A stretch of DNA of 64,000 nucleotides from Archaeoglobaceae archaeon (GTDB lineage Archaea; Halobacteriota; Archaeoglobi; Archaeoglobales; Archaeoglobaceae). The notes below the pieces were generated by a model. The model did no database searches and had not been told where the DNA came from. It saw only the letters and a list, made by a program, of their open reading frames with translations. Of this stretch, positions 3,122 through 32,520 are shown one piece after another. A program made the position numbers and the translations under genes. Where the stretch lies: NCBI GenBank assembly GCA_038893835.1, contig JAWAQR010000002.1, forward strand, positions 32,001 through 96,000, written 5' to 3'. Each line of letters opens with the position of its first letter. Position 1 is the stretch's first letter.

Positions 3122-4000
3122 ATGTTGGAAGTTTACAAAAAGTTACCCAAAGAATCTTTTGAATTAATTCTAAGAAACTTTACTGTTAGGGAATATTTAA
3201 AAAATGCTTGGAATAAATTCCTTCTTTCTGGAAACTTAGAACCTTCAAGTCTTGAAAAAATCTTTGATGAACTCTTTAGATTCTTTCTTCGTCCATTTGA
3301 GCTAATAATTTTCAATGAAAAAATAGTTAGATCAATTTTTCCGATAGAAAAAATTCTAGTTGGTGAAGATGTTCTCTCCGCTTACACCGAATTCGTTGAA
3401 TCCTTTACTTCTCACATGAAGTTGACTTTCCAGCTTTTCTCTCAACCCTTCTTTGAGAGAATGCCTGTGGAGAATTTTATAGAAGAGTGGAAAAAGTTCT
3501 TCGATAAATTCGAGGTAAAACCTGTGATTCCATACGATCTACCCTTTGCTCTGCCAGAGAATGCAAAGAACTATCTTATCGACTGCATCTTGCATTGGAA
3601 AGAGTTTGTCATAGATTACGAAAAATACAGAGACTTACTCAGAAATTCCTACATGAAATCTGTTGAAAAGTTCTGCGAATTTTTGTCAAAATCCAAACCA
3701 AATAGTTTTGAAGAATTTAGAAACTCTTTCATGGATTTTATGGCAAAAGAATTCGATTCTTTGCTGATTTCAGAGGAATACCTGAAATTACAGCAAAAGC
3801 TCCTGGATGCCCTTTTTGACCATATCTACTGCCTTCGCAGATTCTTGGAGTTACTAATAGAGAACAATCCTGCTAGCCCATTTGCAACAGTATCGCAGAT
3901 CGATGAAGCTTACAAGCGGATCATGGATTTGAGGAGAAAAGTTTTGGAGCTTGAAAAAAGAATAGAATTGCTAGAGGGTAAGTATGCTCGAAAGGATTAA
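3122..4000 (+). CDS. phaE: Class III PHA synthase subunit PhaE-like protein
   Basis: All-helical; C-terminal PFATVSQIDEAYKRIMDLRRKVLELEKRIE resembles the PhaE box and coiled coil; overlaps the phaC start. Confidence 0.8.
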   Translation: MLEVYKKLPKESFELILRNFTVREYLKNAWNKFLLSGNLEPSSLEKIFDELFRFFLRPFELIIFNEKIVRSIFPIEKILVGEDVLSAYTEFVESFTSHMKLTFQLFSQPFFERMPVENFIEEWKKFFDKFEVKPVIPYDLPFALPENAKNYLIDCILHWKEFVIDYEKYRDLLRNSYMKSVEKFCEFLSKSKPNSFEEFRNSFMDFMAKEFDSLLISEEYLKLQQKLLDALFDHIYCLRRFLELLIENNPASPFATVSQIDEAYKRIMDLRRKVLELEKRIELLEGKYARKD

Positions 4001-4964
4001 AGATTTGGAAGTTAAGCCATGGAGCTGTGAGTTTGAAGTGGTCCATGAAGACTGGTTGTTCAAATTGCTCCACTTTAAGGGGGAGAGAAAGCATAGAACT
4101 CCTTTGTTGTTCGTTTACGCATTCATAAATCGCCCTTATATCCTCGATTTGCATGAAGATGTTAGCATAGTGAAAAAATTGGTCAAAGAGGGAATCGATG
4201 TATGGATGATCGACTGGGGATATCCGAAGAGGGCTGATAAGTTCTTTAGAATTTCGGATTACATAGATTACATAGATTTTTGCGTGGAGAAAATAAGAAG
4301 GGAAACAAAAAGCGACTCCATAACTCTCCATGGTTACTGTCTAGGTTCAACACTCTCAGTTATATACGCGAGCCTGTATCCTGAAAAGGTAAAGAATTTG
4401 GTGATTCAAACTCCGCCCATAAACTTCAATACCGAAAATACTTTAGCCATCTGGGCAAAGCACATAGATCCAAAGAAGATATCTAGAGCAGTTGGAAACG
4501 TGAGCGGTGAAATGTTGAATCTGGCATTTCTACTAATAGATCCAATTCGTCTCGTTTATGCAAAGTATCAAACTCTCTTGGACAATTTCGAAGATCCAAA
4601 GTTCTTAAGGGAATTCTTTTATATGGACTTCTGGATCTTTGACTCACCATCAATTCCAGGAAGCGTATTTGAGGAGTTCATAGAACGATGGTATCACAGG
4701 AACGAACTGATCGAAAATAGATATGATGTGAACGGGAGAAAGGTTGATTTGAACAACATAAAAATGCCAGTTCTAGCGCTTTATGCTGAAAAAGACCATA
4801 TAACTCCTCCGAGTTCAATCATTCCCTTCTTAGAAAAAATACCATCAAAGGATAAAAAGGTGCTTAGCGTTGATAAAGGACATATAGGCTTGACTGTGAG
4901 CAAGAGTTCGCATGCAAAATTGTGGAAAGAAGCGATAAAGTGGATAGTTGAGCACTCAGATTGA
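3984..4964 (+). CDS. phaC: Class III poly(R)-hydroxyalkanoate synthase subunit PhaC
   Basis: YAFINRPYILDL, IDWGYP, lipase box GYCLG (Cys119), AEKDHI (Asp271), KGHIGL (His300); 326 aa, class III size. Confidence 0.92.
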   Translation: MLERIKDLEVKPWSCEFEVVHEDWLFKLLHFKGERKHRTPLLFVYAFINRPYILDLHEDVSIVKKLVKEGIDVWMIDWGYPKRADKFFRISDYIDYIDFCVEKIRRETKSDSITLHGYCLGSTLSVIYASLYPEKVKNLVIQTPPINFNTENTLAIWAKHIDPKKISRAVGNVSGEMLNLAFLLIDPIRLVYAKYQTLLDNFEDPKFLREFFYMDFWIFDSPSIPGSVFEEFIERWYHRNELIENRYDVNGRKVDLNNIKMPVLALYAEKDHITPPSSIIPFLEKIPSKDKKVLSVDKGHIGLTVSKSSHAKLWKEAIKWIVEHSD

Positions 4965-6263
4965 TCTTAAATCCACAACTCTCCTTGCTTTTCCCATGGA
5001 TCTCTCTATTCTACCTTTTTCAACCAGCTCGACATTGGTTCTTAGCATTAGTTCCCTCTGCAATGCTTTTTGTATTTTCTCCTGCAATCTTTTCAAGTCT
5101 TCAAGCTCTCCTGTAAAGAACTCATCCCTTACCTCAACTCTTATAGTTATCTCATCCAGAGATCCTTTTCTAGTCAGCAATATCTGGAAGTTATCCCCCA
5201 CTTCAGGTATTTGCATCAAAACATGCTCTATCTGGCTTGGAAAAACGTTTACTCCACGAACTATGAGCATGTCATCGCTTCTCCCGAGAATTCTCATTAG
5301 TCTTGGATGTGTCCTTCCACAGGCACATTTTTCCGTTTCGATGATTGTTATGTCTCCCGTCCTATATCTCAATATCGGCATCGCTTCCTTAGTAAGGGGA
5401 GTTAACACGAGTTCTCCCCTTTCCCCTTCTCCAACTCTTTCCCCAGTCTCTGGGTCTATTATCTCGACGAAATAGTGATCGATCCAGATATGCAACCCCT
5501 GCTGCTCTTTACATTCAAAAGCAACTCCAGGTCCATTCATTTCGCTTAAACCATAGCTGTCATATGCCTTTATTCCAAAAGCATCCTCGAGCCTTTTTCT
5601 AGTATTCTCGCTCCAAGGTTCAGCACCAAAGCAACCAAATTTCAGCTTCAATTTATCCAGCAAACCCAGCTCTTCGGCAACTTCCTTAATGTGCAAAGCG
5701 TAGCTGGGTGTTGAATGAATCGCAGTTGTGCAGAAATCGACCATGTACTGTATTTGTCTTTCCGTATTTCCAACACCTGAAGGAATTGTTACAGCTCCAA
5801 TTTTCTCCGCTCCATACTGGAATCCCAGTCCTCCTGTGAAAAAGGCGTAATTCACTATGTTCTGGAAAACATCTCCCTTCCGAAGTCCTACCATGTAAAG
5901 ACATCTTGCAACCATATTTGCCCAAGTTTCTATGTCTTTGGCCGTATATCCTACAACTTTTGGCTTTCCAGAAGTGCCACTCGAGGTGTGTATCCTTACA
6001 ATCTCACTCTTTGGCACCGCAAACAATCCAAAAGGATAGTTTTCAGCGAAGTGTTCCTTTGTCGTGAAAGGTATTTTTTCAACGTCATCGAAGCTTTTTA
6101 TATCATCTGGAGTGACGTTTGCGGCTTTCATTCTTTTTTTAAAGAAAAAAACATTTTCATAAGCTCTCTTTATTGTTTGTTTTAATCTTTTAAACTGCAA
6201 CTCTTCAAGCTCTTCCTTTGGAAGACATTCTTCCCTATCCCAGAACTCCTCGCTCCATGGCAT
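4956..6263 (-). CDS. paaK: Phenylacetate-CoA ligase family protein (paralog 1)
   Basis: HTSSGTSGKP P-loop, GAEPW, YGLSE, RYRTGD, GRSDDM; substrate not determinable. Confidence 0.9.
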   Translation of the reverse strand: MPWSEEFWDREECLPKEELEELQFKRLKQTIKRAYENVFFFKKRMKAANVTPDDIKSFDDVEKIPFTTKEHFAENYPFGLFAVPKSEIVRIHTSSGTSGKPKVVGYTAKDIETWANMVARCLYMVGLRKGDVFQNIVNYAFFTGGLGFQYGAEKIGAVTIPSGVGNTERQIQYMVDFCTTAIHSTPSYALHIKEVAEELGLLDKLKLKFGCFGAEPWSENTRKRLEDAFGIKAYDSYGLSEMNGPGVAFECKEQQGLHIWIDHYFVEIIDPETGERVGEGERGELVLTPLTKEAMPILRYRTGDITIIETEKCACGRTHPRLMRILGRSDDMLIVRGVNVFPSQIEHVLMQIPEVGDNFQILLTRKGSLDEITIRVEVRDEFFTGELEDLKRLQEKIQKALQRELMLRTNVELVEKGRIERSMGKARRVVDLRSI

Positions 6264-7127: not shown

Positions 7128-7319
7128 TTACTCGATCTGAATCTTTCTTATTTCCTTTTTCTCCTTTCTTTCTAATTCCTCTATTTTCTTTATTTGTGCA
7201 TCGATGAGACTTCTCAAGGCAATCAAGAACTCCTTATACGCTTTCAGCGTATGCTCCAAGAATTTTTCAGGAAAAACATCTTCTAAGCTTGGAACTGTGA
7301 TCCTTATATCTTTTGGCAT
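7128..7319 (-). CDS. Small amphipathic-helix protein with C-terminal IxI motif, coupled to the Get3/ArsA ATPase
   Basis: 63 aa; 4 bp from the upstream ATPase and 5 bp from larE; GGTGA RBS-like site upstream; ends IRKIQIE. Confidence 0.85.
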   Translation of the reverse strand: MPKDIRITVPSLEDVFPEKFLEHTLKAYKEFLIALRSLIDAQIKKIEELERKEKKEIRKIQIE

Positions 7320-7323
7320 ATCA

Positions 7324-8466
7324 TCACCTAAACCTTACTCGGATTTCGTTGTTATTAAAGCTTGCTCCAATTGTTTCCCTTAATCTAAGAACCTGTGGCA
7401 AGAATATCGTCCTTTTCCACTGTCCTGCAATGATGATAAGTTCTTCCCCTCTTCTATATATTTCTATATCCTCTTTTTTTAAAAATGGTACTTTTATCCT
7501 TAAAACATATTCATCTCCATTTTTTTCAACTTTCATGGGTCTCTCTGAGATCATCTTTTTGGTTGGATCAAAATCGAAGATCTTATCTGCTAGCTCGAAG
7601 AGTTTCTCTCCAACTATTTCGGATCGCTGGAAAGGTATCTGTATTATTGGGACTGGGAAAGATTGCTGTACCCTTTTGAGGTAATCTTCCTGCATCTTTA
7701 TCCAGTCAGAAAAGAAATCTCCTATGTCTTTTGGAAATACCTTGTTAACGATTACGCAATCCACGGTGTAGCCAAAGAGATTTAGATACGTAAAAGCTCT
7801 TTCAGACTCCTTTATAACCATCTTTTCTGGGTTCATGACAATTCTTATGGCAGCCTCATTTTCAAGGAGATCTTTTATCTTGCTTATCCTTACGTACATT
7901 TCTTGTATTTTATCCATTATCTCCTCACTCGGTAGAGGAATTTTGATCAAAGGCTCTGCAATTGGTTTTACTATTTTGAGCAATTTCTTTTCAATTCCAA
8001 AAAATCGATTCATATACCATTTGGCAACTTCCGGAACGCTGAGAAGGCGAAGAGTTTCTCCAGTCGGAGCACAGTCTAGGATTATTGTGTCGAAATTTCC
8101 CTTTTCGTAAAATTCCAACAAATTCAGAAGACTTGCAACTTCGTCGAATCCAGGTAAAATTGCCAGTTCTTCTGCTATGACATCTTCTATGCCTTGAGAT
8201 TTAAAGAAGAGGAGAAGATAGTCCTTTATAACTTCCCAGTGTTTCTTTAGCTCATATTCTACGTTGACTTCCATTCCGTAAAGTCTTTCGGCAATCTTTT
8301 TTGGCTCAGCACCAAGTTGGAATTGAAAGGAATCTGAAAGGCTATGTGCAGGGTCTGTTGAAATTATCAGCGTCTCATGTCCGAGATTTGCTGCCTTTAT
8401 TGCAGTCATTGCTGCAATCGTAGTTTTTCCAACTCCCCCTTTACCTGTGAATAGCAGGATGTTCAC
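7324..8466 (-). CDS. Get3/ArsA-family ATPase with C-terminal alpha-crystallin (HSP20-like) domain (Get3d architecture)
   Basis: GKGGVGKT, STDPAHSL, DCAPTG switch II, VNKV; C-terminal beta-rich YVLRIKVPF...ELIIIAGQWKRTIFLP...IRVRF; single ATPase domain, no CxxC. Confidence 0.92.
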   Translation of the reverse strand: MNILLFTGKGGVGKTTIAAMTAIKAANLGHETLIISTDPAHSLSDSFQFQLGAEPKKIAERLYGMEVNVEYELKKHWEVIKDYLLLFFKSQGIEDVIAEELAILPGFDEVASLLNLLEFYEKGNFDTIILDCAPTGETLRLLSVPEVAKWYMNRFFGIEKKLLKIVKPIAEPLIKIPLPSEEIMDKIQEMYVRISKIKDLLENEAAIRIVMNPEKMVIKESERAFTYLNLFGYTVDCVIVNKVFPKDIGDFFSDWIKMQEDYLKRVQQSFPVPIIQIPFQRSEIVGEKLFELADKIFDFDPTKKMISERPMKVEKNGDEYVLRIKVPFLKKEDIEIYRRGEELIIIAGQWKRTIFLPQVLRLRETIGASFNNNEIRVRFR

Positions 8467-8502: not shown

Positions 8503-8706
8503 TTATTCTTTCTTCTGCTGTTGTTTCCTCTTTATAACTTCTTCAAGCTTCTTTTCTAAAGGCTCCTGATGTGTGTAGGGGCAGATCAAATAATGCTCAA
8601 CAGCTTTTGCTATAGCATCTTTGGTTGCAACTTCACCGGTTTTCTTCTTCAACTCCTCTAAAACGTTTTCAGGCAATACAGTTTGTGCGTGGACGATCTT
8701 TACCAT
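8503..8706 (-). CDS. Small conserved archaeal protein (DUF5371-like, probable ribbon-helix-helix)
   Basis: KIVHAQTVLP..LEELKKKTGE..TKDAIAKAVEHYL pattern; GGGGTGA RBS upstream. Confidence 0.75.
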   Translation of the reverse strand: MVKIVHAQTVLPENVLEELKKKTGEVATKDAIAKAVEHYLICPYTHQEPLEKKLEEVIKRKQQQKKE

Positions 8707-31333: not shown

Positions 31334-32520
31334 AGGAGATAGAGCGTAAAAAAAATGAAATGGTTCAGCTTCTTTCAAAGCTGATAGAAATAAAGGCTAT
31401 TTCTCCAGATTTTGGTGGAGAAGGGGAAGAGAAAAAGGCTGAAGTTCTGATGAATTACCTAGATGAATTCGACTACGTTGAGAGATTTGATGCAATCGAT
31501 GAAAGAGTTGGAAAAAGGCCAAACATTGTTGCAAAAATAAAAGGGGCTGTAGACAGAACTATATGGATTGTTTCTCACCTGGACGTCGTCCCTGCTGGGG
31601 ATGAAAAGCTTTGGAAATCTCCCCCATTCAAAGCTGTTTTTGAAGGTGGTAGAATTTACGGAAGAGGTAGCGAGGACAATGGACAGGGAATAGTTTCATC
31701 TCTCTTTGCTGGAAAGGCAATAATAGAGTCTGGATTAAAACCAAAGTACAACTTTGGTCTTGTATTTGTTTCAGATGAGGAAAGTGGAAGTAATTTTGGA
31801 ATAAAACACCTGCTGAAGAAAGATGTTTTTTCGAAGAACGATATGTTTGTAGTCCCTGATGTTGGTTCACAAAAAGGGGATGCCATAGAAATCGCGGAAA
31901 AGAGCATTCTTTGGTTAAAGTTTGAAATTTACGGAAAGCAGACACATGCAAGTACGCCTGTGATGAACGCTTCGAGAAGGGCGATGAAGTTCATTTTGGA
32001 TCTGGATGAAAAACTTCATACGAAGTTCAATGCAAGAGATGAGCTTTTTAATCCACCTTACTCAACATTTGAGCCCACAAAGAGGGAAAAGAACGTTGAT
32101 AACATAAATACGATTCCTGGAATCGATATAAGTTACATGGATTGTCGCATATTGCCGGAGTATAGGCTTGAAGACGTAATCGATTATATAGAGAGCGTTA
32201 AGAAATTCCACGAGATCAGAGACAACGAAAAGATAAATGTAGAAGTGATTCACAGCTTTAGCTCTCCAAAGACTCCTGAAAATTCTGAGATTGCTTTGAG
32301 ACTTTCAAAAACCATAGAGATGATTAGGGGTATAAAAACCAGGTTCATAGGGATTGGAGGAAATACCTGCGCCTCTTTCCTTAGACATGCTGGTTTCAAA
32401 GAAACCGTTGCCTGGTGCACTGCAGATGGGACTGCGCATAAGCCAAACGAGTACTGTGTTGTAGACAACATGGTGGAGGATGCAAAGGTTTTCTTCATGC
32501 TGTTCTTTGATCCAAAATGA
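31327..32520 (+). CDS. M20 metallopeptidase (DapE/ArgE-like)
   Basis: SHLDVVP, GRGSEDNG, DEE, NINTIPG, AHKPNEY. Confidence 0.93.
   Translation: MLKEIERKKNEMVQLLSKLIEIKAISPDFGGEGEEKKAEVLMNYLDEFDYVERFDAIDERVGKRPNIVAKIKGAVDRTIWIVSHLDVVPAGDEKLWKSPPFKAVFEGGRIYGRGSEDNGQGIVSSLFAGKAIIESGLKPKYNFGLVFVSDEESGSNFGIKHLLKKDVFSKNDMFVVPDVGSQKGDAIEIAEKSILWLKFEIYGKQTHASTPVMNASRRAMKFILDLDEKLHTKFNARDELFNPPYSTFEPTKREKNVDNINTIPGIDISYMDCRILPEYRLEDVIDYIESVKKFHEIRDNEKINVEVIHSFSSPKTPENSEIALRLSKTIEMIRGIKTRFIGIGGNTCASFLRHAGFKETVAWCTADGTAHKPNEYCVVDNMVEDAKVFFMLFFDPK

Follow-up and report, generated by a model that had tools for sequence, protein, structure and literature searches.

A small AF_1253-family protein with a small heat-shock protein-type tail is a probable partner of a crystallin-bearing Get3-like ATPase in Archaeoglobaceae

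A contig from an archaeon of the family Archaeoglobaceae (GenBank assembly GCA_038893835.1, contig JAWAQR010000002.1) carries two neighboring genes whose products are very probably functional partners. In the 64,000-nucleotide stretch that we analyzed (positions 32,001 to 96,000 of the contig; hereafter, the window), a gene for an ArsA/Get3-family ATPase with a C-terminal α-crystallin-like domain (7324–8466, minus strand) is followed by a gene for a 63-amino-acid protein of the AF_1253 family (PF27253; 7128–7319, minus strand, including the stop codon). The small protein terminates in RKIQIE, and it is well supported by sequence comparison that this ending represents an anchor tail like those of small heat-shock proteins (sHSPs), placed on a dedicated partner. 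Docking of the tail on the crystallin domain of the ATPase can only be inferred, because comparative data and analogy are its basis; we regard it as plausible, though not quite probable.

The two genes are closely linked. The ATPase is encoded by an open reading frame (ORF) of 380 amino acids with a GTG start and a TGA stop, and the translation of the downstream ORF (7128–7319, minus strand) is MPKDIRITVPSLEDVFPEKFLEHTLKAYKEFLIALRSLIDAQIKKIEELERKEKKEIRKIQIE. Four bases lie between the stop of the ATPase gene and the ATG of the small gene. At this junction (7320–7329, minus strand, as read from the DNA), the final two codons of the ATPase gene, AGG and TGA (stop), read together as a Shine-Dalgarno-like site, AGGTGA, placed 5 bases ahead of the small gene’s ATG. 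From this sequence, we infer that translation of the small gene may be coupled to that of the ATPase gene. The latter encodes the sole full-length ArsA/Get3 homolog in the window’s own genome, which is 97% complete.

The known behavior of sHSP tails frames the question of how two such proteins might interact. The C-terminal extension of sHSPs carries an IXI motif (I/V-x-I/V; IxI below) that binds the β4/β8 groove of a neighboring crystallin domain, and deletion of the motif abolishes oligomerization of MjHSP16.5 (PMC3638399). The same groove can be filled in trans: BAG3, a co-chaperone that is not itself an sHSP, binds it with IPV motifs (PMC6212398). Get3d, a solved structure that the ATPase resembles over its full length, has a crystallin domain whose role is stated to be unclear and whose partners are stated to be unknown (PMC10248533, PMC6593721).

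The family assignment of the ATPase is clear from profile searches. Residues 1–295 (7582–8466, minus strand) matched PF02374 (ArsA_ATPase; E 1.2e-90, 304.3 bits vs. a cut-off of 24.3), and the protein passed TIGR00345 (TRC40/GET3/ArsA; 261.5 bits vs. a cut-off of 135). The P-loop, GKGGVGKT (residues 8–15), conforms to the deviant Walker A motif GKGGxGKT and is intact; its residues T7, G8, K9, G10, G11, G13, and K14 are invariant across 39 homologs. Two narrower models failed: that of the two-domain arsenical pump ArsA (TIGR04291; 94 bits vs. a cut-off of 650, with a single ATPase domain present here) and the NCBIfam equivalog for Get3d/NosAFP (NF050088; 166 bits vs. a cut-off of 325). An AlphaFold2 model of the ATPase, based on 39 homologs, had a pLDDT of 86.8 and a pTM of 0.85, and Foldseek matched it with a probability of 1.00 to 3zq6, 3ug6, and many other Get3 chains, i.e., the Get3 fold. 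For the ATPase part, the nearest structure was archaeal Get3/TRC40 (3zq6, E 9e-24), and a phmmer comparison of this domain with the archaeal Get3 sequences of 3zq6 and 3ug6 gave E values of 5e-45 and 9e-45. Over the full length, crystallin domain included, the model matched Nostoc Get3d (8egk; E 1.8e-22, TMq 0.70 over 392 columns, 23% identity). The protein is thus an ATPase of the TRC40/GET3/ArsA type, and a role in the delivery of tail-anchored proteins is putative.

The C-terminal domain spans residues 311–379 (7330–7536, minus strand). It was identified by a PF17886 (ArsA_HSP20) match to residues 317–379 (E 4.6e-21, 74.6 bits vs. a cut-off of 22.5) that covers all of profile positions 1–63 of 63, and by the seven strands that DSSP assigned in the model: 311–316, 319–325, 334–339, 342–347, 350–355, 365–371, and 374–379. 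Because the final strand of the model is 374–379, the domain stops at its own last strand, as the original prediction had proposed: it ends ...NNEIRVRFR, with one residue left before the stop. By strand order and by analogy with sHSP numbering, we labeled strand 334–339 (IEIYRR; 7450–7467, minus strand) β4 and strand 365–371 (TIGASFN; 7354–7374, minus strand), in which A368 is invariant among 39 homologs, β8.

The original prediction had further held that the ATPase lacks a C-terminal extension. This is true of the protein in the window and untrue as a generality, as many partnered homologs have 2–23 residues beyond the crystallin domain. None of the partnered ATPases inspected, with or without a short extension, had an IxI of its own. 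Among 19 partnerless bacterial ArsA-crystallin proteins, one (locus L179; G259:C2), ending ...GPAEGLALE, has a possible IxI-like tail. We considered the extension as a feature that might separate partnered from partnerless ATPases and rejected it, the bacterial medians being 7 and 9 residues. Searching with the ATPase’s crystallin region returned only 11 close relatives and was uninformative on versions with tails of their own.

The small protein belongs to a large family. The PF27253 (AF_1253) annotation was available, precomputed, for an identical protein and seven relatives, and the corresponding atlas cluster bears the AF_1253 name. A profile built from 16 homologs retrieved 487 cluster representatives (E ≤ 1e-3) among 1.84 billion; named AF_1253 members come from Archaeoglobaceae, Methanomassiliicoccales, Geothermarchaeota, Thermodesulfobacteriota, Dehalococcoidia, Anaerolineae, Aminicenantes, and others. 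The family signature, P-x-E-x3-H-x3-A-x-[KR]-E-x-L-L-A-x-R-S-L-I-D, is followed by a variable charged linker and then by the tail. As the original prediction had described, the small protein consists of a helix, a charged linker, and the terminal IRKIQIE, in that order. The core helix (residues 18–47; 7179–7268, minus strand) was defined from a 42-member alignment and the AlphaFold2 model; across these diverse members, H23 and E30 are invariant, and L32, A34, and D40 are at least 90% conserved. The linker, ELERKEKKEI (residues 48–57; 7149–7178, minus strand), varies among members in length and sequence, such that 18–31 residues (median 23) separate the core D from the C-terminus. Neither Pfam nor NCBIfam detected an α-crystallin domain (PF00011) in the small protein, which is predicted to be a single helix. 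Among 8000 scored candidates, we found no fused or longer form of the protein, which is weak evidence.

Toward the N-terminus, family comparison revealed an alternating hydrophobic segment, IRITVP (residues 5–10; 7290–7307, minus strand), that recurs as [IV]x[IV]x[IV]P in many subfamilies, though not in all. Pairing of the tail with this strand of its own chain was considered and rejected: strand-less subfamilies (L019, L020, and an archaeal family, f12) keep the tail, a paralog (L015) has the strand without the tail, and the AlphaFold2 model shows no hairpin. That paralog belongs to a second, tail-less type present in some Archaeoglobaceae (L015; P0015, P0025, P0027), which keeps an IKIKIP segment and is not adjacent to ArsA.

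The tail itself (residues 58–63; 7131–7148, minus strand) has the sHSP-type pattern [KR]-[IV]-x-[IV]-E. The original prediction had staked its proposal on the conservation of this ending in homologs, and the ending proved to be conserved. Among the top 150 of the 487 representatives, a terminal [ILV]x[ILV]x was seen in 113, and a further 11 had the motif with no more than four residues after it. In the 113, K (79) or R (17) stands at position −5, I (82) or V (29) at −4, V (71) or I (36) at −2, and E (70) at −1. One alignment of homologs had a terminal IxI in 15 of 16 sequences. Such an ending is rare in the window’s own genome, and we therefore do not attribute it to chance: a C-terminal [ILV]x[ILV]E occurs in 5 of 1702 ORFs of at least 100 amino acids and in 12 of 4584 ORFs of 40–99 amino acids (approximately 0.3%), and the stricter [KR][ILV]x[ILV]E ends only one of the 1702 long ORFs, namely an sHSP. 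The genome’s two sHSPs end ...GSGKKIKIE (the one just counted) and ...EKKIIPLE. A 94-amino-acid ORF of the same genome (G000:C6:40042–40326, minus strand) also ends ...ELKEVKVE.

The original prediction had expected small genes next to ArsA-HSP20 homologs to share this ending, and this was borne out. In relatives of the window’s genome, a small ORF directly followed the ArsA-crystallin gene in 16 of 20 loci; the ATPases at these loci are as little as 33% identical, and among them was a second, paralogous type of pair (approximately 34% identical; tail LKVE). The tail was kept down to homologs whose ATPases are only about 30–34% identical. A set of 35 bacterial loci, biased toward the one bacterial subgroup that was the source of the search pattern, held 19 tail-bearing small ORFs, of which 18 follow an ArsA that aligned through the crystallin domain; in the non-adjacent exception (L050), the ArsA-crystallin gene is located elsewhere in the genome. 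The other 16 loci harbor a tail-less, two-helix subtype, and none of them has an ArsA gene within 4 kb. None of four genomes with this subtype had an ArsA-crystallin gene: they have either no ArsA or only a domain-less one. In a second sample, drawn from a bacterial phylum, 23 of the 30 best small-protein loci had the tail, and 18 of the 23 adjoin ArsA-crystallin genes; one further adjacent ORF ends SIPLEDA, and four two-helix, tail-less forms reside in genomes without an ArsA-crystallin match. The unpublished genome G261 was counted solely in the tallies of this sample.

In family f12, our family profile gave a single weak match in 23 genomes. Nevertheless, wherever DNA downstream of the family’s ArsA-crystallin genes is visible (nine of nine cases), an overlapping ORF of 98–111 amino acids follows, with a diverged helix and the ending KVKVE, VTVE, or VSVE. 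As tailed ORFs remain where the profile fails, the tail has been retained for longer than the helix.

Pooling the loci, for a total of 72 unique small ORFs, gave the same picture. The tailed and adjacent class comprised 40 by script and three more by inspection (L019, L095, L036); 12 were tailed and non-adjacent, one was at a contig edge, none was tail-less and adjacent, and 16 were tail-less and non-adjacent. As a control, we inspected 14 ArsA/Get3 genes of the same phylum that lack the crystallin domain, and none had a tail-bearing downstream ORF beside it; one of the 14 (L122) has almost no downstream DNA. In the 28 genomes of family f1, which includes the window’s, both genes were found in 21, only the small gene in five, only the ArsA-crystallin gene in none, and neither in two. 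In sum, tailed AF_1253 proteins nearly always accompany a crystallin-bearing ArsA; the converse does not always hold.

We propose that the two genes specify a two-component unit consisting of a Get3/TRC40-like ATPase and a 63-amino-acid adaptor of the AF_1253 family. The crystallin-like domain of the ATPase lacks the anchor tail typical of true sHSPs, and the small protein would supply it. The tail would be accommodated as an extra strand in the β4/β8 edge groove, as are IxI tails in sHSP oligomers and the IPV motifs of BAG3 on HSPB proteins. Once docked, it would hold the helix close to the ATPase dimer, and the small protein might there serve as a regulator or adaptor, not as a client resembling a membrane protein.

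A prediction of the complex, which had been suggested as a check on the original idea, gave weak support. The ATPase dimer was modeled with two copies of the small protein, using custom alignments, in three runs; these gave ipSAE values of 0.37, 0.38, and 0.34 vs. 0.00 for the best control. In calibration, 58 of 80 solved complexes attained the ipSAE mark, as did 2 of 110 mismatched pairs; only 7 of the 80 and both mismatches passed in the range up to 0.60. The pLDDT of the partner was 51–54, and the runs shared at least 62% of their contacts.

Several observations weigh against a tail that docks on the crystallin domain, or against so regular a partnership. The complex prediction was a weak pass for which no interface was reported. 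AlphaFold2 of the lone small protein gave a single helix over residues 18–62 that extends, at low confidence, through the tail (pLDDT 95–98 in the core, dropping to 63 at the tail). In solved Get3d, the Get4 site of the Get3 dimer is where the crystallin domain packs (PMC10248533). One archaeal genus, g6 (G024, G168, G174, and G192; each 99% complete), has a well-conserved tailed protein (tails KKIEIE, KKIEVE, and KKVEIE), and an ArsA-crystallin gene was not found in its genomes with either our profile or PF02374; in G024, the PF02374 search yielded only short P-loop matches. Four of the five small-only genomes of family f1 belong to this genus, and G013 resembles it: the tailed protein is there, and a search for ArsA-crystallin came up empty. 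In genus g22, G021, and G025, both genes are present but apart. Conversely, many genomes of the bacterial phylum sample have ArsA-crystallin genes without a match to the small-protein family; of 20 such loci, 18 had no adjacent tailed ORF, and therefore the crystallin domain does not always need a small partner. (The remaining two, L167 and L168, have adjacent tailed ORFs ending TRIEIE and LRIDIE, with helices beyond profile detection.) Finally, the genomes counted are related and not independent, and the counts thus overstate their statistical weight.

One alternative is that the partnership is real but the tail acts otherwise: by strand addition to the ATPase domain, by self-association, or through a third component, with the helix as the element that binds the ATPase. 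The helix core (H23, E30, L32, A34, and D40) is indeed the most conserved stretch in most subfamilies, and both the lack of a reported interface and the 18 partnerless bacterial loci are as this explanation would have it. Against it, the presence of the tail, not that of the helix, tracks the ArsA-crystallin gene (0 of the 16 tail-less forms were adjacent), and in f12 and at L167 and L168 it is the tail that was retained while the helix diverged beyond detection. Furthermore, the domain-less ArsA genes had no such neighbor in any of the 14 cases, and the tail matches the sHSP anchor motif. We deem this alternative unlikely, though deserving of serious weight.

sHSPs are near-universal, and the tail might dock on these ordinary proteins, alone or in addition to the ATPase. 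In that event, the small protein would be an adaptor in the manner of BAG3, joining sHSP oligomers to the Get3-like ATPase. Its tail cannot be told apart from those of the sHSPs in its own genome, the genus g6 keeps the tailed protein where ArsA-crystallin was not found, and BAG3 provides a precedent (PMC6212398). However, the tailed form is mostly restricted to genomes that have ArsA-crystallin, and where that gene is missing tail-less forms are found, a distribution that the ubiquity of sHSPs would not lead one to expect. The tight operon coupling of the small gene with the ATPase gene also speaks against this reading. We thus consider docking on sHSPs improbable.

Get3 grooves bind helices, and the original prediction had the amphipathic helix of the small protein entering the client groove of the ATPase. 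The helix is amphipathic (helical moment 1.25). Its hydrophobicity is far from that of a transmembrane segment: the best 18-residue Kyte-Doolittle mean is 0.57, with a charged C-terminus and no C-terminal transmembrane segment. Its conserved polar residues (H23, E30, and D40) and its small residues spaced seven apart (A27 and A34, i and i+7) point instead to a specific interface, and no computed result put the helix in the groove. A client of this kind is therefore very improbable, and this part of the original proposal found no support; what the comparisons do support is that the small protein is a conserved, dedicated neighbor of crystallin-bearing ArsA/Get3 proteins. Coincidence of adjacency and tail, with an unrelated or spurious small ORF, can draw only on the non-adjacent cases and is scarcely credible given 487 family representatives, the repeated occurrence of the pair in archaea and in no fewer than three bacterial groups, and a background of approximately 0.3% for the tail.

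The surroundings of the pair were also surveyed, and no third gene is conserved across lineages. In the window, a gene for a DUF5371 protein (67 amino acids, E 1.1e-32; 8503–8706, minus strand) is located 37 bases upstream of the ATPase gene. This position is kept in close relatives only (nine matches, eight of them beyond the window’s own locus, several of which represent the same place repeated), and the remaining neighbors are lineage-specific. In loci L100–L109 of f12, a family-2 glycosyltransferase gene precedes the pair (identified by Pfam in L100 and by similar N-termini in the others), and L101, L108, and L109 have a second, tandem ArsA-crystallin copy that in L109 is seemingly broken into pieces. 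In the Aminicenantes-like or related bacterial loci L037, L052, and L056, the pair is followed by a gene for a CDP-alcohol phosphatidyltransferase, with myo-inositol-1-phosphate synthase nearby in two. The tail-less, two-helix subtype of Anaerolineae (L044, L046, and L048, at about 3900–6000; L051) is convergent to a gene for an ABC1/UbiB-type kinase in three of four loci; in the fourth, it is beside genes for a thiolase and a DUF4010 protein. Two genomes (L112/L126 and L113/L127) have a domain-less ArsA/Get3 gene followed by separate HSP20-like genes without an IxI tail and then by the gas-vesicle genes GvpK and GvpL/GvpF. Elsewhere in the window (3122–4964, plus strand), two genes overlap: one is PhaE-like (weak PF09712 match, E 3.7e-6), and the other encodes a class III PhaC (TIGR01836; its 338.6 bits fall slightly short of the 365.3 cut-off).

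Crystallin-bearing Get3 homologs and the AF_1253 family were both known before this work; a link between them was not found in the literature searched, a search outside of which lay subscription journals and the text of the Pfam entry. More broadly, the partners so far lacking for Get3-like ATPases with a crystallin domain could, in archaea and in many bacteria, be AF_1253 proteins, with the tail plugging the groove and the domain acting as a docking socket for an adaptor or regulator in trans. Such a unit would be a prokaryotic equivalent of BAG3-HSPB or Get4-Get3, and similar reasoning may lead to partners for the Get3d of chloroplasts and cyanobacteria. We offer this generalization tentatively and think it somewhat doubtful in its full extent. 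The conserved neighbor with its sHSP-type tail does offer a concrete, testable hypothesis for a domain of unclear role, namely that it is a socket for an IxI-tailed partner; if this is correct, an uncharacterized Pfam family with hundreds of sequence clusters would gain a first function.

How does the proposed unit compare with known systems? Like Get3d (NosGet3d, 3igf/8egk; AtGet3d, 8elf), the ATPase combines a Get3/ArsA fold with a C-terminal, seven-strand crystallin domain that has no oligomerization features (PMC10248533). Unlike Get3d, with which it is only 22–23% identical and whose NosAFP model it failed, it has an intact P-loop; the active site of Get3d is described as incomplete (PMC10248533). 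The Get3d lineage treated in that paper, which names no small partner, is that of photosynthetic bacteria and plants. The ATPase domain is closest to those of archaeal Get3/TRC40 from M. thermautotrophicus (3zq6) and M. jannaschii (3ug6), but these solved proteins have no crystallin domain. An archaeal “Group 11” of 21 sequences with both a hydrophobic groove and an α-crystallin domain was listed by Farkas et al. (2019, Table 1), and the available account of it mentions no partner gene (PMC6593721).

The closest parallels to the tail come from the chaperone field. As in the sHSP anchor (e.g., that of MjHSP16.5), a basic residue precedes an I/V-x-I/V that ends a flexible C-terminal extension; in contrast to sHSPs, the protein that bears the motif itself lacks a crystallin domain, and the domain presumed to receive the tail belongs to the same chain as an ATPase. 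As in BAG3, an IxI-type motif would be supplied in trans by a protein that is not an sHSP. BAG3, unlike the small protein, is eukaryotic, large, and multi-domain, is unrelated to it in sequence, and carries its motifs internally. If docking occurs as proposed, the small protein would thus provide a prokaryotic example of a non-sHSP protein in an IxI-groove interaction, one otherwise known from BAG3.

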